DNA from: a virus
Lineage: Duplodnaviria; Caudoviricetes
Length of the DNA: 64,000 nt
Direction: 5' to 3' (one strand)
Virus record (IMG/VR): IMGVR_UViG_3300020192_000279
Location: 43,016-107,015 of that record
Part shown: positions 4,805 to 62,954 of the stretch, piece after piece
Numbering within the stretch: position 1 is the stretch's first letter
How the letters are laid out: each line of letters opens with the position of its first letter
Position numbers and translations under genes: made by a program
Notes under the pieces: model-generated
The model's database searches: none
What the model was told of the DNA's origin: nothing
The model's input: the letters and a program-made list of their open reading frames with translations, nothing else

Positions 4805-5386
4805 ATGAAACGCTACGATATCATTCGTCATCTGATTGAGGCACGCGACTACAAGTCGTATCTTGAAATTGGTGTACTGGGACAGGAAACATTCAACAGC
4901 TTGCCGCCATTAGATGTTAAACATAGTGTTGATCCTAATGGGCAAGCTGTGTTTAATACTACCTCCGACGACTTTTTCAAGAATCATTGTGATCAATATT
5001 ATGATTTAATCTTTATTGACGGCTTGCATCTTGAAGAGCAAGTGCAAAGAGATATGGAAAATTCATTGACACACCTAAACGAAGGTGGCATAATTATAGT
5101 ACATGACTGCTTGCCTTCGGCAGAGTACGAGCAACTGCGAGAAGGTGTTAGTGGCAAACCATGGACTGGGGACGTGTGGAAGGCATTTGCAAAGCTGCGA
5201 GCGGATCGTAGGGACTTAATTATGCGTGTTGTGGATACTGATTATGGATGTGGGTTAATTGAGCGTGGTGTCGATCCGGTCGAGTACCACTCAATTGATG
5301 GCGATTACACCTGGGACTTCTTCTGTAAGAATCGTAACAAAATCATGGGTGTGATTACACCGGAGCAGTTCATTGGACGTTCATAA
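4805..5386 (+). CDS. Class I SAM methyltransferase (Methyltransf_24-like)
   Basis: YLEIGV, YDLIFIDGLH, GGIIIVHD. Confidence 0.85.
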   Translation: MKRYDIIRHLIEARDYKSYLEIGVLGQETFNSLPPLDVKHSVDPNGQAVFNTTSDDFFKNHCDQYYDLIFIDGLHLEEQVQRDMENSLTHLNEGGIIIVHDCLPSAEYEQLREGVSGKPWTGDVWKAFAKLRADRRDLIMRVVDTDYGCGLIERGVDPVEYHSIDGDYTWDFFCKNRNKIMGVITPEQFIGRS

Positions 5387-5900
5387 TCGAGATTGGGTTG
5401 TAGCTCGTAACAATCTTTTGAATGGCAAGCTACTTGAGATTGGTAGTTTTGTTGTGCCCGGCCAAGAACAGATTGCCTTGCGACCAGCAGTCGCAAAGTT
5501 TGTCAATAGCTATCTCGGCATTGACATGCGTGAAGGCCCTGGCGTTGATCTCGTAACTAGCGAAGACAACGCCTTTCCTTTTGAAGATAACACATTTGAT
5601 GTCGTTGTATCGTTAGATACCCTTGAACACGTTCGCAACCCTTGGACGTTCATTGAAAACGCAGCGAGAGTCCTAAAGCCCGGTGGTCACTTCTTTTTGG
5701 CTACCGTGTTTTCATTTCCTATTCATGGTTACCCGGATGACTACTGGCGTTTCACCCCCAATTGCTTGAAGATGCTCATCGAGACCTATGGTCTCGAAGT
5801 GGCAGGTGATTTGACGCCATCTGAATGCTGTACTAAAAACCCTGCACATCACTTGGCGAACCCGACAATCGTTCGTCTAATTGCTAGAAAGCCACTATGA
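5373..5900 (+). CDS. SAM-dependent methyltransferase
   Basis: LLEIGS, FDVVVS..TLEHV, VLKPGG, HGYPDDYWRFT. Confidence 0.85.
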   Translation: MDVHNRDWVVARNNLLNGKLLEIGSFVVPGQEQIALRPAVAKFVNSYLGIDMREGPGVDLVTSEDNAFPFEDNTFDVVVSLDTLEHVRNPWTFIENAARVLKPGGHFFLATVFSFPIHGYPDDYWRFTPNCLKMLIETYGLEVAGDLTPSECCTKNPAHHLANPTIVRLIARKPL

Positions 5901-6883
5901 ACGCCAAGACATTAGTTACTGGTTCGTCTGGATTTTTAGGTAAACATGTCGTTCCACTCTTACGTGCCGATGGTCATGAAGTGATGACCCCATCAAGTAA
6001 CTCTTTGAACTTACTTGACCAAGACGCTCAGGCAATTGCGAGGTATCTTGTTTTCCACGAGGTAAGTACGGTTGTTCATCTTGCTGCAATTTGTGGTGGC
6101 ATCGGCATCAATAAAGACAATCCAGGTAAGTTCATGTATGAGAACTTGCAGATGGGTCTTAACGTTATCGAGGCGTGTCGCCTCGCTAACGTAAAGAAGC
6201 TTGTGAATTTGAGTACCGTCTGCTCGTATCCCAAGAACACGCCGGTGCCATTTCAAGAGAGTGATCTATGGAATGGCTATCCCGAAGAGACGAATGCTCC
6301 ATATGGCATTGCTAAGAAAACGATTGTGGAGCTTGGTATTGCATACCATAAGCAGTATGGTTTAAACGTCACTAATCTAGTGCCGGTTAATATGGCCGGT
6401 GAGCACGATCATTTCGATCTTTATTCCTCTCATGTTGTGCCAGCTTTGATTCGCAAGTTTGAAGAAGCTGATCAACAAAGAGAGTATGTAGATATCTACT
6501 CAGTGTACCAAACGTTACCAACTGACAAAGCTTTGATTAGTGCCCCACTTGTGACCTTATGGGGTACAGGATCTGCTTCTCGCGAGTTTTTGTATGCCGG
6601 TGATTGTGCCAAAGCGATTGCAATTGCCGTTCAAAAGAATACGGGGCCAGATCCCATCAATCTTGGCACTGGTCAAGAAATTACCATCAAGCAGTTAGCC
6701 GAGTTGGTAAAGCAAATTGGTGGTTATTTTTCCAATGTCAAATGGGATCATACTAAGCCAGATGGTCAGCCACGCAGATCACTAGATGTTTCAAGAGCCA
6801 AGAACGTGCTTCGCTGGGAAGCAACCACACCGATCGAAGAAACTGTGCGACGCACAATTGAATGGTATAGACAGAACCAATGA
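5897..6883 (+). CDS. fcl: GDP-L-fucose synthase
   Basis: GSSGFLG, HLAA..GGI, YGIAKK, SHVVPALIRK, WGTG..SREFLY, KPDGQPR. Confidence 0.95.
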   Translation: MNAKTLVTGSSGFLGKHVVPLLRADGHEVMTPSSNSLNLLDQDAQAIARYLVFHEVSTVVHLAAICGGIGINKDNPGKFMYENLQMGLNVIEACRLANVKKLVNLSTVCSYPKNTPVPFQESDLWNGYPEETNAPYGIAKKTIVELGIAYHKQYGLNVTNLVPVNMAGEHDHFDLYSSHVVPALIRKFEEADQQREYVDIYSVYQTLPTDKALISAPLVTLWGTGSASREFLYAGDCAKAIAIAVQKNTGPDPINLGTGQEITIKQLAELVKQIGGYFSNVKWDHTKPDGQPRRSLDVSRAKNVLRWEATTPIEETVRRTIEWYRQNQ

Positions 6884-7899
6884 GCAAGACAGCTATCATT
6901 ACGGGCATCGGCGGCATGGACGGATTTTATCTATCTCGTTTATTGCTTGAAAAGAACTATAGGGTTGTTGGTATACTGCGTCGCTCTGCCAATAAGAACG
7001 ACGCTCGCTTACGCACATTGCAAGGCTCACCCAACCTGCATCTAGTGTATGGCGACATTACCGATGCGGCAAGTATCAGTACGATAGTTGAGCAGTTTAG
7101 ACCTGATGAATTTTATCATCTAGCCGCCAACTCTTTCGTGGGATGCTCATGGACATCGCCCAACCATGTGTTTGAAACGAATACAATTGGTGTAATTAAT
7201 TGCCTAGAAGCATTGCGACAGTTCAAGAAGGACTGTCGTTTTTACTTTGCTGGCAGTAGCGAGATGTATGGCGATTACGTTAAGCGTAAGGGCGGCAACG
7301 TTCTTCTGGACGAAAACTCACCAATGATTGCCGCATCACCTTATGGAGTATCTAAGGTAGCGGGATATCAAATGACAAAGGTGTACAGAGAGTCATATGA
7401 TATGTTTGCTGCGTGCGGCATTCTATTCAATCACTCTGCTCCTCATCGCGGCGAAGAGTTTTTTACTCGAAAAGTCACAAGTCAGTTGGCCAAGATCTTT
7501 TGGGGCCGTCAAGATCAACTTGTCTTGGGCAACCTTACTGCCAAACGTGACGAGGGCTATAGTGGCGATTACGTTAAGGCTATGTGGCTCATGCTGCAAC
7601 ATGACAAGCCAGACGATTTCGTTATTTCAACCGGCGAGACCCATAGCTGTCTAGAATGGCTTGACCACACACTCGACTTCTTTCACCTTTCAAGCGATTG
7701 TGTTACCACGTCTTCTAGTTTGGTTCGCCCCAACGAAGTGAATGTATTAATTGGTGACTCTACTAAAGCACGCGAGGTTTTAGGGTGGACGCCATCTGTA
7801 AGCTACAAAGAATTGAATACTAAGATGTGTTGTTATGATTACCATCTTCAATCATTGAACCCCGAGTTCGCTCGTCGAGCGGACGAGTTCCTTTTCTAG
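6880..7899 (+). CDS. gmd: GDP-mannose 4,6-dehydratase
   Basis: TGIGGMDG, HLAA.SFV, SSEMYG, SPYGVSK, GILFNH, FFTRKV, LGNL.AKRD. Confidence 0.95.
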   Translation: MSKTAIITGIGGMDGFYLSRLLLEKNYRVVGILRRSANKNDARLRTLQGSPNLHLVYGDITDAASISTIVEQFRPDEFYHLAANSFVGCSWTSPNHVFETNTIGVINCLEALRQFKKDCRFYFAGSSEMYGDYVKRKGGNVLLDENSPMIAASPYGVSKVAGYQMTKVYRESYDMFAACGILFNHSAPHRGEEFFTRKVTSQLAKIFWGRQDQLVLGNLTAKRDEGYSGDYVKAMWLMLQHDKPDDFVISTGETHSCLEWLDHTLDFFHLSSDCVTTSSSLVRPNEVNVLIGDSTKAREVLGWTPSVSYKELNTKMCCYDYHLQSLNPEFARRADEFLF

Positions 7900-7907
7900 G
7901 AGTAAAT

Positions 7908-50924: not shown

Positions 50925-51401
50925 TCAATCTCCTATGGAGTCAACAAAAATCTGCAAAATCTCGATTGCTTGCGAAACGTGCTCGTCCGTCAGGCCCGTT
51001 TTCATGCTTGTTTGCACGAAAAATGGAAGTTGTTCGGGTAGCATGTCAGAATCGTCATCGAAAATCACGAATTGCGGATCTTGAAGTCCGCAGACATCAA
51101 GCCATCGTTTGATTTCGTCTCCACGCATCGGGCCTAGCGTATCCGTTTTCGAGTCAACGCGGAGCCCAAATTTTCCAAGACGCTCCTGCAAAATTGCAAC
51201 GGAACGTGGCGAATGTCGCCAGGAAGACGACAGAACGATTGTGTGCGTGTAAGAGCGGGCCAGCCTAGCAAATCTCTCAACGCATTTATCGTCTAATGCA
51301 CCAATGCAGGTGCCTTTCGCGGATGCCGCACGAACAGCATCAAAGTTATTCAGAACGCCGTCAACGTCTAGAAAAAAAACAATCATGTTTTGGTATGCCA
51401 C
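50925..51401 (-). CDS. HAD domain protein (Swiss Army Knife RNA-repair type)
   Basis: FLDVDGVLN, IVLSSSWR, RG.EI..WL, FVI.DD..DM, GLT. Confidence 0.88.
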   Translation of the reverse strand: MAYQNMIVFFLDVDGVLNNFDAVRAASAKGTCIGALDDKCVERFARLARSYTHTIVLSSSWRHSPRSVAILQERLGKFGLRVDSKTDTLGPMRGDEIKRWLDVCGLQDPQFVIFDDDSDMLPEQLPFFVQTSMKTGLTDEHVSQAIEILQIFVDSIGD

Positions 51402-51916: not shown

Positions 51917-51946
51917 ACTCGGGTGACAGGTCAGCTACAATCCCAG

Positions 51947-52129
51947 TTATTCATCCGTCCATTGGCTCAACGTGGCGTTTTCTTTCTCTTCTAAGTCTAG
52001 CAACTTGTCTTGAGCGTCTTGAAGATCAGCAAGTTCTTTGTGAGCGAGTTCGAGAATAGCGTGCCAGTCGCCGTCGAGACCTTCGGCGGCGAACTGGTCA
52101 AGTACCCTTCTAAGGTTCTGGTTCATCAT
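51947..52129 (-). CDS. Small coiled-coil protein
   Basis: Follows rIIB. Confidence 0.45.
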   Translation of the reverse strand: MMNQNLRRVLDQFAAEGLDGDWHAILELAHKELADLQDAQDKLLDLEEKENATLSQWTDE

Positions 52130-52131
52130 TT

Positions 52132-53037
52132 CTAGTATCCCCGATAGGGAGAACTACGATCAGGACGGCGACACGACGCTTCATGCTTCTTGCCGCCCTT
52201 CGCACCGCAGTGCGAGCAAGGACTACGCTTGACAGTTCGCTTCACCGTCGTGGTCACTTCGACAACAGCTTCCTCCTCATATGCCGGAGCCTGCTCCGGC
52301 ATAGGATACATCGGACTCTCGATCTGCCCATCAGCCTCGGCGAGCACTTCGTAACGACACACACGCAGCTTGGAACAGTTGTGGTCCTTAGGCACCGCGA
52401 TGCAGTCGGCTGGATTCACTTTCACGAGCACAGTGCGAGCGGCAAAGTCGCGAGCGTACTCCAACGTACCGACGTGGTAGCCGTGGCTACATTCGTTGCG
52501 ACGATCAGGATCGACCTTCTCACGAGACATTTCAATGACGTTGCCAATTGCATTGTTAACCGTACCAGAGTGCTGATCGAACCAGTCGTCACGCACGCCC
52601 TTGTAGCCGACGAAGCAACCATCTTCCGTGATCGGAAACTGACTACGGCCATTGTTGGTGTTTTCCAGAAAGTCGTAGAGTTCCGCGACGGCCATCGGCA
52701 TCGGGTTGGCCATCAGGTTTTCAAGGAATCGAATCAGCGGATCAGTCGGCAGTCCTTCTCGAATGAAGTCGAGAATGCGTTCCGTCACCGTATTGTGAAT
52801 CGGCAGATCGCCGTAGAACACTTGGCCATGCTTGACCGTGACGGGGCTATTTCTCATGGTCGCCGTAATGGTCGCCGGAATGTCGATGAGAGATTCCAGA
52901 TCGTCGTATCGCTTTGCCTTAATCGCTTCCACGATTAAGACGTAGTTTGGATGACTCTTCCCGACCGAGAAGGTCTTGGTATCGAGAATCAGGGTGATGT
53001 TGCCATCGCCCGTAACGAGACTTGCAAAGTTTTTCAT
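52132..53037 (-). CDS. rIIB: rIIB-like protein
   Basis: HPNY, FLENL..NP, ELY.FL, IT.DG.F..YK.V, CS.G.HVG..YA, P.D....K.RVC.Y.V. Confidence 0.9.
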   Translation of the reverse strand: MKNFASLVTGDGNITLILDTKTFSVGKSHPNYVLIVEAIKAKRYDDLESLIDIPATITATMRNSPVTVKHGQVFYGDLPIHNTVTERILDFIREGLPTDPLIRFLENLMANPMPMAVAELYDFLENTNNGRSQFPITEDGCFVGYKGVRDDWFDQHSGTVNNAIGNVIEMSREKVDPDRRNECSHGYHVGTLEYARDFAARTVLVKVNPADCIAVPKDHNCSKLRVCRYEVLAEADGQIESPMYPMPEQAPAYEEEAVVEVTTTVKRTVKRSPCSHCGAKGGKKHEASCRRPDRSSPYRGY

Positions 53038-53040
53038 AGT

Positions 53041-54984
53041 TCAGACGGCCTCAATCAATTTGATGTACTGGATCACTGGTTCCATAGTAATATTACCTCG
53101 GTACCAGTCGATGCCACCCAAAATCGGGTATTTTTCGAAGAATTCTTTCTGATAACGAGGAGCGGTCGGCATCTTGATGTCAAAAATCCGACACAAGCGG
53201 CTGTAAACGCTCATGTTACTGACATTCGCCTCGTAAACCTTAATCAGGTTGTCACACTCTGTCGAGAGTCCAGCAATTTTCTCAATGAGAAACTTATCGC
53301 TAACGTCATCCCGATCATTTTGAAATCTCGACAGAGCAAACATATCAAGATTAGCCAAAAGCTTTTCGGTCATGTCCTTGGCGACAGCGGACAATTCGAT
53401 GATACCGTGCTTGACACGAAGAGAGTCGTATCGCTTGACAGAGATTCCGTAAATTCGCTCGAAGCCGAGCGTGTTCGCGATGATATGAACGTCCTTCGGA
53501 GCGACCCTTTGGCCGTTCCAGATGGCCCAATTACCATCACGCGGCACACAGCAGGCGTCCTTAGCGTCAACGTCGGTAGCCGCGTGAATGCTATTCCACT
53601 CAAAGTTGGGATTACTGCGATTGTCGTGATTGAGAAGCTTGATCGGCATGCTACGCACTGTCGTACGTACGGTTCGAGCCTTACGCGGCACATCCGGCAA
53701 CAGACTCAGCTTGGTCGTCAAGTCGCCAAACAATTCAGTCACGCGAGCGGCGTCCTTAATCTTCACAAGATAGAACCGACTATTGGTATGCGTTTGCATG
53801 TATTGACGAAGGCGACTCTTCATGTTATGCGTCATGTCCGCATCATCTTCAATGAAGATCATTTGATCAATATGTTCGGCAGCACGGAAGTCACCGTGCG
53901 TGCTATTTATGAAGAGTTTTTTGTCACGACGAAGAGAGCAGAATTGCATTGAGTACTTATCCTTCTCTTCTTGTTCGATTGCATCGGTTCCATGAAGCGA
54001 AAGTTCGCTCACCAAGTTACGGTACTTAGCTAGAGCCCGCAGCTTTTTAAGGACCGCCCCTTCGTTCGCGACACGACTTTCAAATTCGGCCCGCACCACA
54101 ATAGCAGCCTCCATAATAGCAGTGGTCACGTTCGCAACCGTCTTGTCGTCGTAATGAACCTCTTCGCGACTAGCGGCAATAGAGACCGCACCCATCGGCA
54201 AGTTCAAGATAATAATGGCATTGTGGCCAAACGGGCAGGCAAAATCGCGATCAGAGACGGCGTAGCAAACCTGACCCATCATGACGTTAAGACGCGATGA
54301 AACAGGTGCTTTATGACTTATGTACAACGAGAATTCACTCGTTTCAAATTCCGGCTTCTCGCTATCGAAGTTGAGTTGGGCACCGACAATGTTCGGACGC
54401 ACCTTGAAAAAGGTGTAGACACGTTGAGCGGCCTTGACGAAAACCTGAGCGTCGCCCGGCTTCGTGTTGATGCGGACCTCCAAGCCGTTCGGCTCGTCCG
54501 TATCGACCGTGTTCAAAAGAGCGAGCGTCGGAATCGACGACTCATTCTTGAAGGCTGAGTACGTGTACTTCTGTTTATCCCAAACAGATATGATCGTGAA
54601 TTGGTCCGTGTACGCAAAGGGGGACTTGCTGCCGATACCTAGACAGCCAGTAAAGTCATTGCTATTCGTGCGAGTACTTTTGCCGTATTTCTTGTATACG
54701 GTTTCGATTTGAGTAGGCGACAAGCCCGTACCGTAGTCACGGATCGACAACCAAGGCTCTAGTGAATTTGGAAGATGAACATCGAACGGCTGATCGGCAC
54801 AGCCAGCATCCGTATGAGAGTCGGATGCATTCGTGGACAATTCACGAACGATAGCCAGCGGCACGTCAGTGTAAATCTTCTTTGAAAGCAAGCTAAACAT
54901 TTCCGCGTTTGCTTCAAAGGAGTACGTGCCTTCCTGGAAGGAGCCAGAGCGTTCGACTTCGAGAGTTGTTTCAGTGAGCTTCAT
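53041..54984 (-). CDS. rIIA: rIIA-like GHKL ATPase
   Basis: IY.D...AIVREL.TNA.D.H, IRDYG.GL, STR, G..G.GSKSPFAY. Confidence 0.9.
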   Translation of the reverse strand: MKLTETTLEVERSGSFQEGTYSFEANAEMFSLLSKKIYTDVPLAIVRELSTNASDSHTDAGCADQPFDVHLPNSLEPWLSIRDYGTGLSPTQIETVYKKYGKSTRTNSNDFTGCLGIGSKSPFAYTDQFTIISVWDKQKYTYSAFKNESSIPTLALLNTVDTDEPNGLEVRINTKPGDAQVFVKAAQRVYTFFKVRPNIVGAQLNFDSEKPEFETSEFSLYISHKAPVSSRLNVMMGQVCYAVSDRDFACPFGHNAIIILNLPMGAVSIAASREEVHYDDKTVANVTTAIMEAAIVVRAEFESRVANEGAVLKKLRALAKYRNLVSELSLHGTDAIEQEEKDKYSMQFCSLRRDKKLFINSTHGDFRAAEHIDQMIFIEDDADMTHNMKSRLRQYMQTHTNSRFYLVKIKDAARVTELFGDLTTKLSLLPDVPRKARTVRTTVRSMPIKLLNHDNRSNPNFEWNSIHAATDVDAKDACCVPRDGNWAIWNGQRVAPKDVHIIANTLGFERIYGISVKRYDSLRVKHGIIELSAVAKDMTEKLLANLDMFALSRFQNDRDDVSDKFLIEKIAGLSTECDNLIKVYEANVSNMSVYSRLCRIFDIKMPTAPRYQKEFFEKYPILGGIDWYRGNITMEPVIQYIKLIEAV

Positions 54985-54993
54985 GTCAGTATC

Positions 54994-55290
54994 TTACCCC
55001 TTAGAGTCTAGCTTGTCAAGTGGAAATTTTGACCCATAGATCAAAAGCAGTCGCAGAAATTCTTGGTACTCGTCACATTGAGTCTGTTCTTTGCTACGCA
55101 GAAGAATAGTTTCAATTGCCGTCGCTCCTGCCATTAGCAAGGTCTCGAAACATTCATGCCCTTTGTCAAAGGCAATGTATTCGTTTTGCCGATCTCCAAC
55201 CACAAAACAAATACGTCTGCAATTGTCCAAAGCTCCCCGATACACGATAATTTCTCTATCCATTAATGGTCTCGCGTTCTTTTCTAGCAA
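54994..55290 (-). CDS. Hypothetical protein
   Basis: Coupled ORF. Confidence 0.45.
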   Translation of the reverse strand: MLEKNARPLMDREIIVYRGALDNCRRICFVVGDRQNEYIAFDKGHECFETLLMAGATAIETILLRSKEQTQCDEYQEFLRLLLIYGSKFPLDKLDSKG

Positions 55291-56015
55291 TACAGCAACT
55301 CAAGCGACTCGCCATTCCATAGAATAGCCTGATGCTGTTCGATACACGGAGCACACGCCCACGTTGTACCTTCGGTTTCACCAGCTTGATACGTGTGATG
55401 ATGTCCAAACACCCAGTGCCTGGGCTTAAACTGCCCTCGAATAGCGTTCAGAGCTTGCTTATCCGATCGCCCAAATTCCTTTTTGTACGAACCATAAGGA
55501 AAGTCGAATGGAAACTCGTGCGAGATCACAAGGTCGATTGTCTGCTGATAATCCAACGCCTCCATGACTTGACGATAGGTGATTGACTCTTGAGGCCACC
55601 ACGACTTACCTTGGATCCGATGATCCTTGTCGATGGATGAAGCACCGCCGAAAAACATCACGGTGTAGTCTGTCAGTCGCAGGACTGATCCACGCGGCTG
55701 ATAGATCATGCCTGACTGAAACGCCCCTTGATCTTTTTCAAGCTGATCGTGATTCTCATGATTACCATCAATCCAATAGAATGGCAGTGCTTCTGCCTTA
55801 GCAATCGTGGACGGATCCATATACGCTTTGTGAAACGTAAAGGGTTTACAGAATCCAGTGCCATTAGCCTGAATGTCGCTACCCGGCCACGCATAGCCAA
55901 AATCTCCCACTTGAATCATATGGGTAATATCAGGGTGCTGCTTGAGAGCACGAGCAATCGTGATGTTGAGATCGCTCCACATTCCGTGGACATCCCCCAA
56001 GATTAAGACCTTCAT
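55284..56015 (-). CDS. Metallophosphoesterase
   Basis: GDVHG, GDFG, GNHE, GGA.SID, SH, GHHH. Confidence 0.92.
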   Translation of the reverse strand: MKVLILGDVHGMWSDLNITIARALKQHPDITHMIQVGDFGYAWPGSDIQANGTGFCKPFTFHKAYMDPSTIAKAEALPFYWIDGNHENHDQLEKDQGAFQSGMIYQPRGSVLRLTDYTVMFFGGASSIDKDHRIQGKSWWPQESITYRQVMEALDYQQTIDLVISHEFPFDFPYGSYKKEFGRSDKQALNAIRGQFKPRHWVFGHHHTYQAGETEGTTWACAPCIEQHQAILWNGESLELLYC

Positions 56016-56194
56016 GATGTCAAGTCTTCTTCGTTTTCAAGCTCAGATTCCTGCCCAGAGAACGCCCAGTACAGAAACAATGTAAATGGAATGATAGGCC
56101 ATATCAGTGACACGAAACCTCGCACCCAGCTATTGTCAGTGTCAGCACGATCCCAGGCGAGAGGTATACCGAGCACGTAGAGGATCCAAAACAT
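56012..56194 (-). CDS. Small membrane protein
   Basis: Two hydrophobic segments. Confidence 0.5.
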   Translation of the reverse strand: MFWILYVLGIPLAWDRADTDNSWVRGFVSLIWPIIPFTLFLYWAFSGQESELENEEDLTS

Positions 56195-57267
56195 CAGTCG
56201 TCCTTGTTTCGACAGGCGGTGAGGTCAGATTGGAATTTACCAGTGAGCAACAGATTGCGGCCAGTCAAGCACACAGCAATGACACGTCGCGGATCGGTAT
56301 TCTGTTCAACGTCCATGCAGTAGCGAATCGCAGGCTCAATCCATGCGACATCACCATTGATAGATTCAACTTCACGATTAAGAATTAGCCGCAAAATTGC
56401 TTCGTTAGGACGCGGACAGTAAATACTGTGAGAGAAACGTGACGCCATTGCCCCTTCGTGACGTGACTTGAAAAGATCAAGGTCATTCACGGTCGCGACG
56501 CAGACGAACGGCACCTTGCGGTAGTAGCTACCACGAGCAGTCACCTTGCGAATTTCCGCTCGACCATCAAGAGCGGACAGTAGCCACATGAAAGCTTGAT
56601 CCGGCACCTTTTCGATCTCTTCAATCACGAGAAGGGGCGGAACAACGTCGGCATCCATGATTGCGGCAATAGCACCAGCAGCCGTAGTCTGAGTGCCGTC
56701 GAATTCGATACAGCCCTCGACCCCCACCATATTCTTGACACCACCCAGAAGATCACTCTTGCCGCATCCGGGCTTGCCGTGCAAGACAGCGTGATAACGT
56801 TTCGTGTAATTGGTATCTTTGGCGGTTTGCAACGACGCCAGAACAATGTCGATTTGCGGATCGAGACCGTACAAGTGATCGAAGTGCGTACCACGTTCGA
56901 TCGTGACTTCCGCAATCACGTCAGTTTCATCGAACACTTCGAGATTGGGGCCGGTGGGCTTATGACCGCCCAGTATGCTCCACTTGCCCTTATTGCCAGC
57001 ACACTTGAAAATGGCGTCCTTGACACCATTGAATTGTTTGGCCGGGTCGCCGCGACCAATGTGCTCGAATTCAAGTTCGACGCTGTAATGCCATTCACCT
57101 TCAACCAAAACAGGCACGATATCGTCTGGCAGTTCGGTTGACAGACGGAATTGTTTGCCTCGTGAGGCCGCGAGAGCACGATCCACGATCTCGTCTACCT
57201 GACGACGTGTAATCGAGACGTTCGAGCGACGTTGGGCTTTGCGTTCGATGGTGATCTTGTGACTCAT
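56194..57267 (-). CDS. AAA+ ATPase, leaderless
   Basis: GKPGCGKS, IEEIEK, ATVN, SRF; promoter TTGACA-N17-TACAAT-N6-ATG. Confidence 0.85.
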   Translation of the reverse strand: MSHKITIERKAQRRSNVSITRRQVDEIVDRALAASRGKQFRLSTELPDDIVPVLVEGEWHYSVELEFEHIGRGDPAKQFNGVKDAIFKCAGNKGKWSILGGHKPTGPNLEVFDETDVIAEVTIERGTHFDHLYGLDPQIDIVLASLQTAKDTNYTKRYHAVLHGKPGCGKSDLLGGVKNMVGVEGCIEFDGTQTTAAGAIAAIMDADVVPPLLVIEEIEKVPDQAFMWLLSALDGRAEIRKVTARGSYYRKVPFVCVATVNDLDLFKSRHEGAMASRFSHSIYCPRPNEAILRLILNREVESINGDVAWIEPAIRYCMDVEQNTDPRRVIAVCLTGRNLLLTGKFQSDLTACRNKDD

Positions 57268-57613
57268 GCCTCTATTGTACCCACTAAACAGCTATTTGTC
57301 AAGTGACTTCCATAAAACGCAGCGACCTAAGAAATAAGCCACTGCGATCAACATGAAGTAGTGTTCACATAGCACGAAAAAGAGAGTAGTGATGGGCAGT
57401 AGAAACATACATACGCTTAACACGATGGAGCCGAGCAGAAGACTCAGGGCGTGGTGCTTCACTTCACTGTCACCATAGCATTTTGAGGCACGAAAACGAT
57501 ACAATTATTGGTTTCAAGACAGAAGACCTTGGCTTGAGGTCCACCGTACAATTTCAAGAACGTCTTGCCGTCATAAGTAAACCACGTTGCGTTTCTTAGA
57601 GACCAAAAGAACT

Positions 57614-57862
57614 TCATACTGCGTAGAAAACAAGGTCTTCTTGTTTCTCGTCCCAGGACATATTCACTAACCCAAGCTCAACCAGACGCATAAGATCTTC
57701 GCTAATCGCCAGAGTATTAATCTCTGTAAGAAGCTGGTCGTCTGTGAAGTAATCTGGCATTCGCGAGATAGCCAATATAGTAATGTACTCGGAGTATTCG
57801 CCGTCAACTGAGACACGTGAGCACTCTTCAAGAGGCTTGAAATAGTCAGATTTATTGTGCAT
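57614..57862 (-). CDS. Hypothetical protein
   Basis: AGGAG RBS before MHNKS. Confidence 0.5.
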   Translation of the reverse strand: MHNKSDYFKPLEECSRVSVDGEYSEYITILAISRMPDYFTDDQLLTEINTLAISEDLMRLVELGLVNMSWDEKQEDLVFYAV

Positions 57863-58047
57863 AATTTCTCCTAAACAGTTTGTCGATTTCAAAACATTCG
57901 GCGTTCGTCTTTTTGTTTCGAGGACCAAAAACGACAGTGATAAAGGCCAGTCTACATCCCTTAAAGTCTGCGTGCCACCACAGATGCCAGCCATCATAAC
58001 GATGCGTCGCTAGATTTAGCCACCATCGACGTGTATGTGCGTTCAGA

Positions 58048-58623
58048 TCAAGCATAGCCGGTAATCGTATTAATGATGCGGACGGCAGTTTCCTCGTCGT
58101 TATCTTTAAGGATGCGGACGGCCATTTTGTGGTACCTGGAACGTTTAATGCCTACGTGTTTCCAGTCCCAAACCTCGTCCTTCTTGATGGTCGTAGCCTT
58201 CTTGGTTCCGCACACACATTCTTCTCGCTTGAAGATGGTGCGTTTGCCAAGTGCTTCGTAGAGGCGTTTTGCCATAGACAAAACTAACTCCTCTTTTTCT
58301 TTTTCAAGCGATTCAGACGTAAAGTGAACTTGCGATACGTCTACACCCTTAGCGTGTAAGTCTCGAAGATAGCGACCTAAGCGAGACCTCTTTCCGCAGT
58401 AACGGAAGTCGAATTCATTGAGGCTAATCTTAGCATTTTTGTCATGCACGACCACAACGCCTAACTGTTTCCATTGGTGACGTTCGCCATAGTGGATAAA
58501 CGTTGCCTGCATTGATGGCGACGCATTAGTCGGTACTGGCACTGGTGGCAAATTACGATTAAAGTTTCGAAGTCCCGCTTGGGCTGTGAAAACGTTCAAT
58601 CGTTTAGGGTTTAAGTGTGTCAT
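58048..58623 (-). CDS. Basic hypothetical protein
   Basis: 191-aa ORF. Confidence 0.55.
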   Translation of the reverse strand: MTHLNPKRLNVFTAQAGLRNFNRNLPPVPVPTNASPSMQATFIHYGERHQWKQLGVVVVHDKNAKISLNEFDFRYCGKRSRLGRYLRDLHAKGVDVSQVHFTSESLEKEKEELVLSMAKRLYEALGKRTIFKREECVCGTKKATTIKKDEVWDWKHVGIKRSRYHKMAVRILKDNDEETAVRIINTITGYA

Positions 58624-59003
58624 GATTGGTAATATTAGCGGTAACGATTGTCACTTTTGCTGTCACAAAAACATAATCACTTTTGTAACGACGTATGTTA
58701 ATCTTCCAGGTCTTCGCCATATTGGGCGAACGGCAGAGGCGTAGGTTTGGGTGTTGCGGTCGGCCACATTTTCTTGACACCCTTAACGACTAAGCCGCCA
58801 ACAATGAGACCGCCAAAGATGACGGGGCACACCACACACATTCACTCACCATCCTTTTCGAGTTGTTCGATTACCCAGATTATCATCTTAAGTTCGGCTT
58901 CTAATATTAGACTCTGTCGTTCAATTAGGGCTCGTTTAGCTCGAAACTGTTCGATTCGGGCCTGTAGCTTAGTTTGCATATCTCAGGATACCCCATCTAG
59001 TGG

Positions 59004-59252
59004 CTAAGTCAAGTTCTTTTCAAGTTCCTTACGCAGAGCCTCCACACACTTATCACAAACCTTACCAGAGACATTATTGAGGCGACCGAGGTCGATACCC
59101 ATGAGTTTGGTGCCGCAAATGGCGATTGTGCCTTCCTTGGCGGGTTTATCCCCGTTGCGGATGATGTGGGCCAGCGGAGGCCAGCAGGACGGAACCTCGT
59201 CCACCATGGGTTCGATTACGGGCTCAGTCAGTGTTTCTTTTATCATTTTCAA
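59004..59252 (-). CDS. DUF3039-like Zn-binding protein
   Basis: H......AICG......C..C. Confidence 0.5.
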   Translation of the reverse strand: MKMIKETLTEPVIEPMVDEVPSCWPPLAHIIRNGDKPAKEGTIAICGTKLMGIDLGRLNNVSGKVCDKCVEALRKELEKNLT

Positions 59253-59736
59253 GCTCTTTCAGAACTGCCCTTAATAGAGTCATATGACCAATAAGAGTAG
59301 TTATGACTGTGGGATTGTCATAGTACATATTCATGATGAGTTCGATGGCGGGAATCGAGTTACGGACCTTAGTGACTAAATTGTCTTCCTTGGTATTACT
59401 CATTTTCATTTTCAAGCTACTCCAAAACCATAGTCAATGTCAATGTACAGATCCTCGTGCGTATTCGCTTTGGGGCGACGCTCATTAGGGTCTATCTTAG
59501 CCGATCCTTTTCTTTTCGTTATAGTTTTTGTTTTCCTGTGCTCACACACAAACACTAACAAAGCTCATTCTCCGCCGGGCAGATTCTTGCAATGGCTCGA
59601 AACGGAATTCTCCAGGATGTCGGCTCGCCCACAAGCACTTCGGCCCCGACCGTGTGTTATCGGACCTCCCTCGCCTGAGTGCGTTTTGCGATCGTGCAGA
59701 TACAAAAAAACACGGCCAGCGTTTGCTTGAAATAGA

Positions 59737-59877
59737 TCAGCTAGCGTCCCTGGACGCAGCTTCCAGCCAACCAGCCTCCCAATCGTCGTGGTCGCTAGTA
59801 CCTTCTCGATACGGGTTATCCTGTAGCCCCTCACCGTCACAGTACGCATCGTAGCCTTCGTCGTATTCTGAACTCAT
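59737..59877 (-). CDS. Acidic Rmf/CrpP-fold peptide, leaderless
   Basis: Y.EGY.AY..G....NPY.......W..GW. Confidence 0.65.
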   Translation of the reverse strand: MSSEYDEGYDAYCDGEGLQDNPYREGTSDHDDWEAGWLEAASRDAS

Positions 59878-59935
59878 GTTTGCATGATAATACTTTTTCG
59901 AGCTATTGTCAAGAAGTTCTTGAAAAAGAAAAAAG

Positions 59936-60030
59936 TGGTTGCACACCTACCCTCTTGAGTGTACTATCTCGTGTCGTCGGGGTGATATCCTGTAATGGGG
60001 CACCTTGGGCGACACGATCTTTTGAATGCA
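59936..60030 (-). ncRNA. Candidate CCA-ended structured RNA
   Basis: TGCATTC/GTGTGCA-A-CCA, 8-bp inner stem, U tract downstream. Confidence 0.4.
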
Positions 60031-60164
60031 GGAGCCCAGCTAGGGCTCGCAAGATAGGTGTCCGCAAACCCCAATCCGGCGGTTTGGCACAATCCAGCAA
60101 ATTGTGGCGTTTTGCGTGTAAACGCTATACGTCTGTTGCCCGTCCTGCACTTTTCAAGGAATAG

Positions 60165-60192
60165 CTTGACATTACGAGGAATCGTGATATGA
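60165..60192 (+). promoter_or_regulatory. Promoter for tRNA-Met
   Basis: TTGACA-N16-TATGAT. Confidence 0.7.
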
Positions 60193-60278
60193 TAGAAGTG
60201 CCAGACTGATGGCTTGAAAAAGTCACCACCTAACTATGCGATTGCCAGTATCGTCAAACTGGTGACAACTTGAAACAC

Positions 60279-60357
60279 TGCGGAGTAGAGAAGCCTGGTT
60301 GTTCTCGTCTGCCTCATAAGCAGAAGATCGTGGGTTCAAATCCCACCTCCGCTACCA
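60279..60357 (+). tRNA. tRNA-Met(CAT), initiator-like
   Basis: U1xU72 mismatch, A11-U24, CTCATAA loop, CCA. Confidence 0.9.
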
Positions 60358-60479
60358 TCTAACTTAGAAATTGGGCCATGTAAAGAAGCGGATAAAGCCT
60401 ACTGACCGTCAAGCCTCAGTAGCCACAAAACCGCAGCCAGTGACGGCTGGAAACGATCAATATAAGATCGTGCCCAACG

Positions 60480-60513
60480 GAGACATCGGGGGTCAAACCC
60501 TGGTGTCTCTTTT
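60480..60513 (+). terminator. Rho-independent terminator
   Basis: GAGACATCGGG...CCTGGTGTCTC-TTTT. Confidence 0.75.
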
Positions 60514-60828
60514 CGTTTGCTTTGTAGCTCGAAAAGGTAGAGTTACTAAGGGAACTATATGCCGCTGGCGTCTCTTCGACACGAACGCTTGGTATTCCTA
60601 AACCAACGGCGTTAGGCATATTAGAGACCGGGGGTCGAGAAAATGGGGTAATAGATATTCCCCTGGGAGTACCGGGGTACGTAAAAAATACGTCTAAGAC
60701 TTAAAAATGAAATTCTGAATAGACATGAGAGAAAACTCTGGAAGTCTGTACAATTCGCTTACTTAGCGTTTCCCAGAAATTTCAGCGGCTTCGTCACCGT
60801 CCTTACTAGTGGCTTGAAAAGGAAGAAC

Positions 60829-60892
60829 TGGGGGCGGGCGTGCTCAACTCCTATCCCCATAGGAGGAGCACCACCCGTCGCCGTGGCCCGCC
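60829..60892 (-). ncRNA. CCA-ended acceptor-stem RNA, copy 1
   Basis: GGCGGGC...GCCCGCC-C-CCA with long inner hairpin. Confidence 0.55.
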
Positions 60893-61144
60893 TTCGCACA
60901 CCCTATCTTACTTCATTTCAAGCACACCGGGTGTCTTGAAGTAGTCTTTTTGGTAAGTGTCCCTAGTAAGTATGGGGTGTGTTTCTTGAAAAGGCTGGAA
61001 GCCTGAGCATCGTCATTACTAGCAATCCCCAGAACTCTGGAAGCTTCGCTACCGTCCTTACTATGCGGCGATCCCAAAAACTCTGGCAGTCTGTACAATC
61101 GCCTTACTAGTGTCTAAAGCAGAAGTGGCTTGAAAAGGAAGAAC

Positions 61145-61215
61145 TGGGGGCGGGCGTGCTCAACTCCTATCCCCATAGGAGGAGCACCACCCGTCGCCGT
61201 GGCCCTTGGCCCGCC
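61145..61215 (-). ncRNA. CCA-ended acceptor-stem RNA, copy 2
   Basis: Same fold; promoter TTGACA-N16-TAAGAT at 61256-61229. Confidence 0.6.
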
Positions 61216-61425
61216 TTCGCAACACCCTATCTTACTTCATTTTCAAGCGATGTCAACAAGGATCCACGATTTTCGTCCCTGATGTCGGATCTTCCAGGGC
61301 GACCGTATCTCGTTGACAGTTACATGTTATCATCGTTTTCAAGCGATGTCAAACAGCCTATATGTTTTATGCTTACATGGTTTTGTCGGTTTGACAAGTA
61401 AAATCATGGATTTATCAGAAACTGT

Positions 61426-61502
61426 TGGAGCGGGTCTCTCCCCGCGTCAAGTCTAGTTACCGAGCCCTTCGGCATGGCGACGCGACTTTCCGTTTGAACC
61501 GC
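61426..61502 (-). ncRNA. CCA-ended RNA with Gly-type acceptor
   Basis: GCGGTTC/GACCCGC-T-CCA; inner CGCGTC/GACGCG stem. Confidence 0.55.
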
Positions 61503-61531
61503 TTGTTACGGAACCGCAACAGAGAGGCAGA

Positions 61532-61627
61532 TGGATGCCCTGAAAGGATTTACACCTAAGTCTTTCGCACTATTTCCTAGGACTGCGTGCGGCTGTTCTG
61601 TTTCTTGTGTTTTTGAACTACAGGGCG
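61532..61627 (-). ncRNA. Expanded tRNA-like RNA with CCA
   Basis: GCCCTG/CAGGGC, TA-GTTC..GAAC D stem, T-like loop, promoter TTGACT-N16-TATGAT directly upstream. Confidence 0.65.
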
Positions 61628-61769
61628 GACATATCATACCATCGTTTTCAAGATAGTCAAGCGGAACGCTTGAAAAAGAAATCGCCCGTCTCGTTTGACA
61701 TTCCCACGGATCGGCGTATCATATGGAGTACCGCCAATCGGCACGAACCAACAACAACGGAGAATCGAC

Positions 61770-62654
61770 ATGATGCAAGCAACGACCGACTTCCTGAACC
61801 GCGAGGGTATGAACTACAGCGTGCAGGCCATGCTGGCACCGCACCCCGTGCATCGTGATCAGAACGTCGAGGGACAGTACCACCTCGTTCGCTCTACGGA
61901 CAATGTCGTGATCTCGCCGAAAACGGTCTCGAAAAAGTACGTCGCGACGTGCCCGATCGACATGATCGCCCCGATCGCCCCTCTGATCGCCGAGGGCTGG
62001 GTGACGCCGGAGCGAGGCTTCATGCTCTCCGGCGGGTCGCACGAGATGCTGGTGTTCAAGATCGACGGCGGCAAGCTCGACAACAGCGGCAAGGTCGACG
62101 GTGAGGATTGGGACCACTTTTTCCAGCTTCACAACTTCCAGGGGTCCGGATCGTTCTTCGGCTCGCTCTTCGCCCGCCGTCAGATCTGCTCGAACGGTGC
62201 CGTTCGCATCGTGAGCAAGGGTAACGGGTTCCGTCTCCGCCACATGGGAGCCCTTCAAGCGAAGTACGAGGATGCCATGCGAACGTGGGAAGATATCCAG
62301 GTCGAGATCCGCAAGCTCTCGAAGCGGATGACGGTCTGGAATGGTCAGACGCTGACCTACTCCGAAGCCGTCGCCCTCTTCCACATGATTTACGATGTCG
62401 AGGATCCGAACGACATCGCGACGCGGACGGAAAACGAACTCAACTTCGCGATCAGCGAGTTCTCGAATCCGGGCCGTGGCACCTACGGCAAGACCGTTGC
62501 GGATGTCTACAACGCGATCACGGCGACGAACACGCACTATGCTCCCAAGAGTAGCCGCGAGACGGAAACGAAGCGTATGTCGAGCCTCTTCAATCCGAAC
62601 GGTTCGCGGAACCTTCTCGAAGGTCGGGCAATCGAAGTGCTGTCGAGCCTCTGA
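61770..62654 (+). CDS. DUF932/DUF945-like early protein
   Basis: VR.TD, VS..Y, N...G.GS, R.IC.NG, RH, YNAIT...H; promoter at 61695. Confidence 0.7.
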   Translation: MMQATTDFLNREGMNYSVQAMLAPHPVHRDQNVEGQYHLVRSTDNVVISPKTVSKKYVATCPIDMIAPIAPLIAEGWVTPERGFMLSGGSHEMLVFKIDGGKLDNSGKVDGEDWDHFFQLHNFQGSGSFFGSLFARRQICSNGAVRIVSKGNGFRLRHMGALQAKYEDAMRTWEDIQVEIRKLSKRMTVWNGQTLTYSEAVALFHMIYDVEDPNDIATRTENELNFAISEFSNPGRGTYGKTVADVYNAITATNTHYAPKSSRETETKRMSSLFNPNGSRNLLEGRAIEVLSSL

Positions 62655-62661
62655 TTAGCCT

Positions 62662-62692
62662 CGGGGTGGCGGTTGACAAGACCGCCACTCCG
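62662..62692 (+). promoter_or_regulatory. Hairpin with -35 box in loop; promoter TTGACA-N17-TATACT
   Basis: CGGGGTGGCGGT-TGACAAG-ACCGCCACTCCG. Confidence 0.7.
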
Positions 62693-62954
62693 GACTATAC
62701 TCTAACCTCATGGCACATCGCTGGGATCGTGAATATAATCGGGCTTCTCGACCTCCGCCCGACCTCATTGGTGACGCCAAAGGCGTTCTCACGGAATGGG
62801 TTATCTTGGCACTAGGGGCCGCATTACTGGGGTGCTTCATCAAGTTTATGGGATGGAACACGGACGACTGACCTAGGGGGCGGCTCAAAAGAGCCGCCCC
62901 CAATTCTTGAAAAGGAGTTGACAGCCGACACTTTCAAGGGTATGATTGGTCACT

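Follow-up and report, generated by a model that had tools for sequence, protein, structure and literature searches.

The right-hand 64 kb of the 107,015-bp virus record G000 (G000:C1:43016-107015, referred to here as the window, whose positions are used unless the contig is named) are crowded with the octamer CTTGAAAA, which reads TTTTCAAG on the opposite strand. This word is enriched at the level of DNA, follows a definable motif, holds conserved places within promoters, and is specific to one phage lineage. We infer that a protein reads it, that this protein is encoded by the phage, and that it acts as a repressor. The explanation that we tentatively favor, with a probability that falls short of even, is that the word is the operator of a putative, probably phage-encoded, monomer-type DNA-binding regulator, multiplied genome-wide in the manner of stoperators. 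G000 is a fragment of a tailed-phage-type genome that is collinear, at ∼74% nucleotide identity, with 43.7 to 147.9 kb of the 147,927-bp record G001; the latter is rated complete, its ends overlap by 127 bp, and the right end of G000 continues into its start.

The initial annotation of the window, made from its letters alone, had put the number of exact copies at ∼56 against an expectation of 2 to 3, with many variants besides. The match list contains 59 exact copies on both strands, including all 18 of the positions that had been listed individually. As 100 dinucleotide shuffles gave an average of 3.71 copies (standard deviation, 2.03; maximum, 9) and none reached 59, the over-representation stands. 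The variants CTTGAAAG and CTTGAAAT account for another 24 and 19 occurrences in the window. In the whole 107-kb contig, the word is the commonest 8-mer, with 76 copies (0.71/kb) compared with a single occurrence of the reversed word. Markov models of higher order reduce the excess without removing it: the 8-mer is expected 36.5 times under an order-5 model, and the 7-mer CTTGAAA, present in 145 copies, is expected 30.4 times under an order-2 model and 88.9 times under the maximal-order model, in which no other 7-mer ranks above it.

Coding sequences (CDSs) were called with our own greedy and crude caller (translation table 11), according to which 88% of the contig is coding; it missed at least two real open reading frames (ORFs) (4703-5386 and 22671-23429), which hold three further copies of the word. 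About three-quarters of the copies (56 of 76) fall inside called CDSs, in both orientations, bearing out the earlier remark that copies occur inside genes. A within-gene synonymous-codon shuffle, which keeps the protein sequence and the codon usage of each gene, predicts only 17.0 ± 3.6 such copies (maximum of 28 in 500 shuffles), and a permutation of codons within each gene predicts 8.0 ± 2.8. All five stop-free frames and both orientations are enriched: 29 copies versus 7.3 expected in sense frame 0 and 3 versus 0.66 in sense frame 2, with 3 versus 0.47, 11 versus 3.7, and 10 versus 4.7 in the antisense frames. The word also bends the choice of codons and residues. Leu-Glu-Lys/Asn tripeptides exceed their compositional expectation more than 2-fold (LEK, 23 versus 8.3; LEN, 17 versus 7.5), FQE is likewise in excess (12 versus 3.0), and 29 of the 40 Leu-Glu-Lys/Asn tripeptides (72%) are spelled with CTTGAAAA, compared with 6.6 expected. 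The share of CTT-GAA among Leu-Glu pairs is 72% if AA follows, 36% if A follows, and 23% otherwise. Given that the excess survives codon-aware and high-order Markov null models, the possibility, raised at the outset, that Leu-Glu-Lys codons explain all copies fails. Outside genes, 16 copies lie wholly inside 12,354 bp of noncoding DNA versus 0.79 expected under an order-2 model of that DNA, an excess of ∼20-fold. These results support a signal that acts at the level of double-stranded DNA, rather than a peptide or codon artifact.

Single-mismatch neighbors delimit the word. Positions 1, 2, 4, 5, 6, and 7 are strict, position 3 is T or C, and position 8 is A, followed in preference by G or T. 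The variant with C at position 3, CTCGAAAA, is found 20 times versus 4.2 expected in G000 and 24 times versus 5.0 in G001, and the other neighbors are mostly near expectation (0.5 to 1.5 times). G is favored at positions -1 and +10, alike in sense, antisense, and noncoding copies. The site is thus asymmetric, ∼10 to 11 bp long, and best written as (G)CT[T/C]GAAA[A/G/T]nG, with CTYGAAA as its core 7-mer; a word-bearing probe sequence is written GCTTGAAAAAG. CTTGAAAA is nonpalindromic, differing from its own reverse complement. The core occurs 188 times in the 107 kb of G000, and its density is 1.4 to 1.8 per kb.

The copies are distributed unevenly. Transcription in contig 1 to 62.5 kb runs on the plus strand through genes for replication and nucleotide metabolism, followed by a minus-strand block (Table 1) that we read as the early genes. 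The 7-mer density rises from 0.93/kb in the plus-strand block to 1.83/kb in the minus-strand block and 3.2/kb in the last 4 kb of the contig. Within genes, copies are densest in the minus-strand block, at 1.0 per kb for the 8-mer and 1.8 per kb for the 7-mer, and sense copies are favored there. The genes richest in copies are accessory early ones of poor conservation, and none occurs in the large genes at contig 5 to 15 kb. The window is mostly noncoding between 59 and 63 kb, where repeated hairpin units, a gene for tRNA-Met, and closely packed σ70-like promoters surround the clustered copies. The right-end peak, which had been placed at 59 to 62 kb, comprises 14 of the 59 window copies within 59,000-63,000, and 10 window copies fall in 60 to 64 kb. 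G001 has an equivalent and equally dense cluster at 143.4 to 146.7 kb.

Overall, ∼60% of the copies are on the minus strand in both phages (∼60:40). The sense-to-antisense ratio in plus-strand genes matches the codon null, and the early minus-strand genes show a sense excess of 49:29 in G000 (null, 48%; P = 0.009) and 31:23 in G001 (null, 40%; P = 0.012). There is, accordingly, a modest tie to the direction of transcription in early genes and no genome-wide, Chi-like polarity. Copies close to one another are no more frequent than under random placement (10 pairs versus 11.3 in G000 and 6 versus 4.9 in G001). Inverted pairs between tRNA genes, noted by the initial annotation, are nevertheless real, namely, the copies at 49079 and 49099 and the copy at 49923 with a 7-mer copy 18 nt on. 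No partner word at a fixed distance was found over 362 sites, where the commonest offset words were downstream purine runs at no more than 15 sites.

In order to relate the word to promoters, we used a strict scan for TTGACW-N16-18-TAnnnT and scored a promoter as word bearing if CTYGAAA stood in its spacer or in the 30 nt upstream. This yielded 23 promoters in G000 and 27 in G001, of which 9 and 8, respectively, bear the word, compared with ∼2 and ∼1.5 expected by chance when estimated from the already enriched genome-wide frequency. Nearly all of the word-bearing promoters lie in the cluster (window 59 to 63 kb; G001 143.4 to 146.7 kb plus position 165), and their copies follow recurrent layouts. 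An inverted copy (TTTTCAAG) ends 6 to 8 nt 5' of the -35 box at G000 59912, 60166, and 61660 and at G001 144735, 144963, 145772, 146351, and 146693. A copy in the direction of transcription starts 2 to 4 nt past the -35 box at G000 61256, 61352, 61660, and 59912 and at G001 143440, 144735, 145772, and 146351. A third layout, CTTGAAA-N5-TTGACA-N8-TTTCAAG-gg-(-10), is common to G000 62918 and G001 165. The spacer copies are aligned with transcription in eight of eight cases (four in each genome), and the upstream copies are mostly inverted relative to the promoter. Thus, promoter copies occupy approximately -50 to -43 (inverted), approximately -27 to -20 (spacer), and, in one case, +12 to +19. 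Where two copies bracket a -35 box, they are 16 to 18 bp apart edge to edge (24 to 26 bp center to center, or 2.3 to 2.5 helical turns), and this spacing varies. The upstream copy of P61660 also lies 18 nt 5' of the divergent plus-strand promoter P61695 of a DUF932 gene (61770-62654), and the architecture of P61660 recurs at G001 145772 and 146351. At least four promoters had been claimed to carry the word in the spacer: this holds for the copies at 61240 (TTGACA-16-TAAGAT), 61336 (TTGACA-17-TAACAT), and 61645 (TTGACT-16-TATGAT), but the copy at 44244 lies between TTGCAC, which matches a -35 box at 3 of 6 positions, and TATCAT, with an ATG 6 nt on, and this site is not in the strict scan. Approximately 1 copy in 7 to 10 is at a promoter.

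Table 1. Coordinates of the word copies, word-bearing promoters, and related features (window positions unless the contig is named)
Feature	Position	Strand	Details	Basis
All 59 window copies, span	4974..62913	26 on +, 33 on -		Match list and shuffle control
Dense cluster	59017..62913	.	14 exact copies in ∼4 kb, mostly noncoding	Match list
P59912	59884..59926	-	TTGACA 59912-59907, TATCAT 59889-59884; CTCGAAAA in spacer 59902-59895; inverted copy 59919-59926, 6 nt upstream of -35; upstream of RMF-like gene	Strict scan
P60166	60151..60220	+	TTGACA 60166-60171, TATGAT 60188-60193; inverted copy 60151-60158, 7 nt upstream; copy 60213-60220 in transcribed leader; upstream of tRNA-Met 60279-60357	
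P61256	61229..61256	-	TTGACA tcg CTTGAAAA tgaag TAAGAT; copy 61240-61247 in spacer	Strict scan
P61352	61324..61352	-	TTGACA tcg CTTGAAAA cgatga TAACAT; copy 61336-61343 in spacer	Strict scan
P61660	61633..61676	-	TTTTCAAG-N8-TTGACT-N2-CTTGAAAA-N6-TATGAT; copies 61669-61676 and 61645-61652	Strict scan
P62918	62906..62946	+	CTTGAAAA (62906-62913)-N4-TTGACA-N8-TTTCAAG (62932-62938)-gg-TATGAT; directly after terminator-like hairpin	
P59012	58985..59024	-	Copy 59017-59024, 4 nt upstream of TTGACT	Strict scan
Promoter-like site, weak -35	44234..44262	-	TTGCAC ttcg CTTGAAAA gtga TATCAT; copy 44244-44251	Context; absent from strict scan
Inverted pair	49079..49106	.	CTTGAAAA-N12-TTTTCAAG between tRNAs 48908-48984 and 49191-49268	Match list
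Inverted pair	49923..49947	.	CTTGAAAA-N10-TTTCAAG adjoining tRNA 49953-50028	7-mer partner 18 nt on
Two direct copies	30802..30832	-	23 nt apart, in 3' end of dNMP-kinase-like gene	Match list
Minus-strand block	19554..59415 (contig 62.5-103 kb)	-	tRNAs, rIIA, ligases, many small ORFs	Gene calls
σ-factor-like gene, 173 residues	25818-26339	-		Profile scans
σ-factor-like gene, 219 residues	contig 28800-29459 (L002:13800-14459)	+		Profile scans

The promoter copies are kept where their surroundings change. Three orthologous promoter pairs of G000 and G001, the only relative that spans the promoter cluster, retain the word despite altered linkers (59912/144735, 60166/144963, and 62918/165). In the first pair, G000 reads ...TTTCAAGaacttcTTGACAatagCTCGAAAaagtatTATCAT and G001 reads ...TTTCAAGcggcacTTGACTtcctCTCGAAAaggtgTATCAT, with both copies retained and the linkers different; in the second, G001 has TTTTCGAG and CTCGAAAG at the equivalent places, the latter being the copy at +12 to +19 of the tRNA-Met transcript. 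Variant strains in which 73 nt are skipped at 60200-60274 and 61352-61426 have GCTTGAAAAAGTC and ...CGTTTTCAAG in the replacing letters, which, if only anecdotally, points the same way. The comparison with public assemblies comprised four runs and covered 40 of 793 differing positions.

Several other relations between the word and promoters were tried and rejected. There is no general association with TTGACW, since word-TTGACW pairs within 40 nt number 30 versus 21.7 expected in G000 and 15 versus 15.1 in G001. The word is not itself a σ70 -35 box (TAnnnT at 16 to 18 nt in 5 of 145 cases versus 6.4 in G000 and in 3 versus 3.8 in G001), nor is it a σ32 -35 element (CCCAT or CCCCA at 11 to 16 nt, 0 versus 0.8 and 2 versus 0.7, respectively). 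A promoter class formed by the word and a -10 box was suggested by TAnnnT 3 to 7 nt after the 7-mer (23 versus ∼14.5), an excess that the known promoters explain. A late promoter for a phage σ factor was likewise discarded: the plus-strand genes have TTAGTGTAYT upstream, and the noncoding DNA of their block has no copy of the word. In both phages, TTAGTGTAYT stands directly 3' of terminator hairpins upstream of plus-strand genes, and ...TCATAATG is found at gene starts; both are candidate promoters for phage σ factors.

The strong enrichment is a property of a narrow group of phages. CTTGAAA is the top 7-mer in G000, G001, G002, and G003, and the word outnumbers its reversed form by 38 to 4 in G001, 17 to 2 in G002, 13 to 2 in G003, 11 to 4 in G004, and 5 to 0 in G005. 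The presence of the word in relatives, which had been left to be checked, is clear for G001 to G003. A density at the phage level was not found in Escherichia coli K-12 (117 copies versus 113 of the reversed word) or in any of 401 gammaproteobacterial genomes, none of which exceeds ∼0.26/kb compared with 0.71/kb in the phage. The table of these genomes includes four unpublished records (G054, G311, G156, and G323), without which the result is the same, and gammaproteobacteria were chosen solely for the subthreshold RMF likeness of a small early gene and may not include the host. A search of 185,579 species genomes with the promoter architecture gave at least 120 scattered matches in unrelated taxa, as by chance, and no host signal. 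Among viral contigs, queries with the rIIA, DUF932, and AAA proteins revealed no further relatives of the promoter cluster. The 17-mer TTGACAAATAGCTGTTT matched G001 and two unrelated contigs, and the 17-mer TTGACATCGCTTGAAAA matched eight loci; the word was counted in five of the latter records, which were treated as unrelated negative controls with kinship assumed to be absent rather than checked, and was enriched in none of them (6 versus 4 reversed words, 6 versus 4, 13 versus 8, 3 versus 5, and 1 versus 1). A metagenome scan with AAGATAGGTGTCCGCAA returned 68 matches, of which L191, L219, and L228 were treated as strain variants of this phage; the other matches mostly have unrelated flanks, and some form small repeated groups of their own. 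In the open-access literature, the word together with "phage" gave only unrelated primer and hairpin uses among the titles listed, and neither the word nor the clade was found described. The word may serve as a marker for fragments of this sublineage in metagenomes.

Under the operator explanation, a sequence-specific protein would bind (G)CT[T/C]GAAA[A/G/T]nG in double-stranded DNA as a monomer or a single domain, as is suggested by the asymmetry of the site and its length of ∼10 bp. The protein is probably encoded by the phage, given that strong enrichment is confined to one phage lineage. Copies bracket or overlap the core of σ70-type early promoters at the boundary of the oppositely transcribed gene blocks, where the bound protein may compete with or reposition the host RNA polymerase; the spacer, the upstream edge of the -35 box, and the transcript start are classical places for the repression of promoters used by this enzyme. 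In this way, early promoters would be turned off, or less likely on, as infection proceeds. Intragenic copies would have been multiplied by selection on their number and not on their place, and they may plausibly act as elongation roadblocks in early genes or concentrate the protein on phage DNA. The whole would amount to an operator plus roadblock, or an operator plus reservoir, that shuts off a class of early promoters, which we advance as the leading but still uncertain possibility. The initial annotation had also thought of a DNA-binding protein site, and both the DNA-level signal and the conserved promoter elements fit that proposal; its further suggestions of a nucleoid or packaging factor are guesses.

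A number of observations weigh against this explanation. The first concerns the protein. Scans of 90 predicted proteins with Pfam and PHROG models found no classical repressor family; HTH_3 appeared only below threshold, inside one σ-like factor, and the HU/IHF fold was not detected. The only DNA-reading proteins recognized are the two σ-factor-like proteins of Table 1. Second, ∼85% of the copies are not near promoter elements, and a general excess of word-TTGACW pairs is lacking, as described above. Third, the variable geometry of the promoter copies (16 to 18 bp) argues against a rigid dimer and suggests independent monomers instead. Fourth, positions are weakly conserved. The 8-mer is retained at 6 of 37 aligned sites in G001 versus a background of 12%. 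In a slightly different mapping, the 7-mer is retained at 22 of 84 sites in G001 (26% versus 15%; P = 0.006), 19 of 61 in G002 (31% versus 15%; P = 0.001), 32 of 36 in G003 (89% versus 72%; P = 0.014), 4 of 15 in G005, and 0 of 16 in G004. At the strain level (six loci, 94 to 99% identity), mismatches inside the word (32 of 1,204) are about as frequent as those outside it (2,370 of 84,184), with a deficit at only one locus, L219 (0 of 350 versus 2.3% outside). The individual intragenic copies are thus under weak constraint at most, and their number is maintained rather than their place. Finally, the enrichment fades with distance: CTTGAAA is only ∼2-fold enriched in the distant relatives G004, G005, L010, and L013 (rank 80 to 929) and ranks 29th in L008 and 21st in L009. 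These are partial fragments (L008 to L010 and L013 cover 11 to 20 kb around the polymerase gene, G004 covers 43 kb, and G005 covers 30 kb), so that the weaker signal may partly reflect the region sampled. Moreover, the word is typically 2- to 3-fold more abundant than its reversed form in gammaproteobacteria, indicating that part of the bulk excess in G001 is not special.

An 80-residue protein encoded at 59004-59246 (minus strand) shares 79% identity with its G001 counterpart versus 40 to 44% for rIIA and DUF932. It has 11 homologues among 5.8 billion proteins, with invariant His27, Cys44, Cys64, and Cys67, and is clade specific. The word overlaps the start codon of its gene in G000, and in G001 a copy is found 20 nt upstream. 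The predicted fold of the protein (mean pLDDT of 44.6) was judged unusable. It is a candidate reader of the word, as are the two σ-factor-like proteins, the DUF932 protein, and the small ORFs at 57.4 to 59.4 kb.

The strongest alternative, which we nevertheless consider rather unlikely, is a self-marking or driven word like uptake sequences or Chi, where a whole-genome process favors many copies and those at promoters are a secondary use. Candidate processes are recombination-dependent replication via the UvsX-like recombinase, protection from nucleases, and packaging, and the phage does encode a UvsX-like recombinase, an exonuclease, and an SbcC-like protein. The density of the word (∼0.7/kb for the 8-mer and 1.4 to 1.8/kb for CTYGAAA, on both strands and in all frames), its effect on protein sequence through the excess of LEK, LEN, and FQE, its weak positional conservation and high turnover, its richness in poorly conserved accessory early genes alongside its absence from the large genes at contig 5 to 15 kb, and a few inverted pairs in noncoding DNA are what such a process would leave behind. 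Self-marking thus explains the intragenic bulk, the turnover, and the protein effect better than the operator explanation does, but it explains the promoter geometry worse, given that fixed and conserved promoter placements are unexpected for a pure density signal. It is further opposed by the lack of strand polarity beyond codon constraints in plus-strand genes, by close pairs that do not exceed random placement, and by the absence of any sampled bacterium near the phage density. The Chi-like or HIP1-like signal that had been suggested initially is likewise not supported, as the word is nonpalindromic, its polarity equals the codon null, and it does not reach phage level in E. coli K-12 or the 401 gammaproteobacteria. 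Because the copies are mostly intragenic and weakly conserved in position, without polarity and without a partner, the word is neither a -35 box nor like Chi and HIP1.

The operator and self-marking accounts may also be combined. We regard it as a speculative idea with a modest chance of being right that a private ∼10-bp word is both an immediate-early operator and a self-label read by copy number, with a phage protein lacking any recognizable DNA-binding family as its reader. If so, the word would have rewritten the choice of codons, and even of residues, in about a hundred genes and would be to a virus what uptake sequences or Chi are to bacteria.

A reader encoded by the host, such as a nucleoid-associated protein, global regulator, or RNA polymerase component (e.g., σ region 4) that the phage recruits or soaks up, is distinctly unlikely in our view. 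TTGAAA is one position from TTGACA, the -35 boxes of the phage are often preceded by C, copies adjoin or fall inside core promoters, and no phage repressor was found. Against these points stand the failure of the word as a σ70 or σ32 -35 box, the absence of a fixed-distance partner, and the mostly inverted orientation of upstream copies. In addition, the promoter pattern gave only scattered, chance-like matches among those listed from the 185,579 species genomes, and strong enrichment is limited to one sublineage.

The two remaining explanations are highly improbable. A strand-level replication signal, e.g., the start site of an unusually specific primase, needs about 1 site per kb on both strands, a spacing that the word provides and that is comparable to the length of Okazaki fragments, and the phage has a DnaB-like helicase, a DnaG-like primase, and a DnaE-like polymerase. 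However, DnaG-type primases such as that of the phage (phrog_47) use trinucleotides, the density of the word varies ∼3-fold between collinear relatives and ∼2-fold between genome regions, and the conserved placement within promoters is left unexplained. Equally hard to credit is a compositional or mutational by-product without a reader, arising from codon-pair bias, repair bias, or a general bacterial oligonucleotide bias: the excess over the reversed form in most of the 401 gammaproteobacteria, the bulk intragenic excess of the 7-mer in G001 of only ∼2-fold over the synonymous null per region (23 versus 11.1, 27 versus 13.4, and 24 versus 10.2), and the equal strain mismatch rates inside and outside the word would suit it, but the 20-fold excess in noncoding DNA, the enrichment of all frames and both orientations, the ordinary frequency of most single-mismatch neighbors, the retention of promoter copies while their flanks diverge, and the near absence of the reversed word speak against it. 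The remaining probability belongs to explanations outside those listed here.

Other features of the promoter region deserve mention. In most promoters that we read as early, in both phages, an ATG follows the -10 box by only 5 to 6 nt (minus-strand promoters at 34879, 36011, 46473, 47117, 55019, 57302, 59012, and 59912 and likewise in G001, at L030 and others), so that translation of the leading gene in each early unit would start on an mRNA without a leader, which is unusual for phages with proteobacterial-looking promoters. The gene behind P59912 (59737-59877, minus strand) encodes a 46-residue protein with a Pfam RMF match (E value of 1e-5; 26.0 bits, with a cutoff of 27.9), and G001 has a counterpart of 49 residues; that this RMF-like protein and the leaderless early mRNAs together take over the initiation of translation is speculation. 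Between the divergent promoters P59912 and P60166, the noncoding stretch 59990-60140, preceded by a conserved GTGTACTATC, has far fewer mismatches than its flanks in the alignment with G001 (79% identical). It may be an undescribed structured RNA; Rfam returned only a weak t44-like match on the minus strand (21.1 bits; E value of 0.08), far below gathering, and only tRNAs reached the gathering score in the Rfam search. An 82-nt unit occurs in two 100% identical copies (60808-60889 and 61124-61205) and contains a long GC-rich hairpin ending ...CCTTTTCAAG on the minus strand, with four copies of a 32-nt repeat between the two. One unit lies behind P61256 and the other behind CTTGAAAtgaagTAAGAT without a clear -35 box, making both candidate small RNA genes.

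Beyond the enzymes already mentioned, the genes recognized in G000 comprise rIIA, ribonucleotide reductase, a CCA-adding enzyme, RNA and DNA ligases, and glycosyltransferases, together with 24 tRNA genes. The phage is uncultured, ∼150 kb in size, and lytic looking. A tyrosine integrase (Phage_integrase) had no match in G000 or in the complete G001, in a search that did not extend to serine integrases, and no close cultured relative was found in the phage collection. The phage is listed in 20 public data sets, from roughly 17 studies, all of them contig sets of microbial mat, hypersaline lake, and freshwater metagenomes; none of those listed is an RNA data set. Beside the tRNA array lies a full set for RNA repair and tRNA care (32555-39145, 45535-45897, and 50925-51401, minus strand), with two RNA ligases, a CCA-adding enzyme, a "Swiss Army Knife" RNA repair HAD domain, and a PTH2-like hydrolase, which suggests a defense against host anticodon nucleases. 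One tRNA has the anticodon CTA, which would read the amber stop, and two have irregular anticodon loops (49953-50028, 49191-49268, and 49384-49476, minus strand); the table 11 gene calls, with 88% of the contig coding, gave no sign of recoded stops. A nicotinamide/nicotinate phosphoribosyltransferase-like gene is divided between two ORFs (39060-39836 and 39892-40725, minus strand), of which one covers the N-terminal domain plus the first part of the catalytic domain and the other covers the remainder; G001 matches both. The end of the contig (63544-64000) is an array of an 18-bp tandem repeat with at least 13 copies in register, which is the likely source of the abundant ACCATCGG/CGATGGTC group of 8-mers and over which the depth in public assemblies is several-fold higher. 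Lastly, a 549-residue ORF (contig 40213-41862; L003:10213-11862) joins an HNH endonuclease-like part (residues 77 to 225) to a dehydrogenase-like part (230 to 549), and additional HNH-like ORFs lie at contig 20655-21077 and window 22671-23429.

How does the word relate to known systems? Abundant, selected short words are known from bacterial chromosomes (uptake sequences, Chi, FtsK-orienting polar sequences [KOPS], and HIP1), and multicopy operators such as stoperators, which are intergenic, are known from phages. The early-gene sense bias and the uniform direction of the spacer copies recall stoperators most of all. According to the available text of PMC9283540, the stoperators of cluster A mycobacteriophages (L5 gp71-type repressor) are asymmetric, monomer-bound sites with more than 20 copies across the genome, some of which overlap the early promoter while others, downstream, stop elongation, and their orientation with respect to transcription matters. 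The phage word is similarly asymmetric and abundant (76 8-mers and 188 CTYGAAA), its spacer copies run with transcription, and the sense orientation is modestly favored in early genes, although the plus-strand genes follow the codon null. Unlike stoperators, which are described there as 13-mers in promoters and short intergenic spaces, it has a core of 7 to 8 bp and about three-quarters of its copies are intragenic. Stoperators, as that text presents them, also belong to temperate phages with an identified repressor, whereas in this phage no tyrosine integrase was found in G001 and no repressor gene was found.

The uptake signal and DNA uptake sequences (USS/DUS) and Chi are short words that occur about once per kb on both strands and inside genes, shape the choice of codons and residues, and are weakly conserved at individual sites. 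They belong to bacterial chromosomes and are read by the uptake machinery of the host or by RecBCD, and Chi is strongly polar. The phage word resembles uptake sequences in occurring about once per kb on both strands, including inside genes, but it differs from uptake sequences and Chi in being dense in one phage lineage only, with no polarity beyond codon effects and no dense genome among 402 bacteria.

The T4 MotA box and the sites of ϕ29 p4 are short sites of phage regulators that adjoin the -35 region of promoters used by host polymerase. The MotA box replaces the -35 box and is centered near -30, 11 to 13 bp upstream of the σ70 -10 box. In contrast, the word-bearing promoters keep an intact TTGACW, with copies at approximately -47 and -23. 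A scan for the C-terminal domain of MotA (MotCF) gave no match, but the control genomes gave none either, so that this result does not speak for the absence of a MotA-like protein. The Mot box TGCTT is mentioned in the accessible part of PMC4122927, which, together with that of PMC2839356, also treats the promoter early stem-loop (PeSL) cassettes of T4-type phages, near-consensus σ70 early promoters with a stem-loop that lie in variable early regions. Hairpin-plus-promoter units that resemble them were noticed here, for example, at 62880-62946, at G001:165, and close to the hairpins of 60.8 and 61.1 kb. PeSLs, as described there, differ in being intergenic and in having no extra conserved word around the -35 box, and they do not explain intragenic copies. 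HIP1 of cyanobacteria, finally, is a hyperabundant octamer that also occurs within genes (PMC5861425, in its available text), as the phage word does. HIP1 is, however, a palindrome of host genomes (GCGATCGC) and is found 0 times in G000 and G001, whereas the phage word is asymmetric.

Wherever a test was possible, each of these families has at least one defining feature that the word lacks. Should the word have no reader, it would illustrate the extent to which sequence drive is able to mold the genome of a virus; should one protein read it, that protein would represent a new family of global phage regulators or self-recognition factors, for which the binding site is ready at hand. The word is unusual in that an intragenic excess that shapes codon choice is joined, in one lytic-looking and uncultured phage, by conserved copies that bracket promoters.

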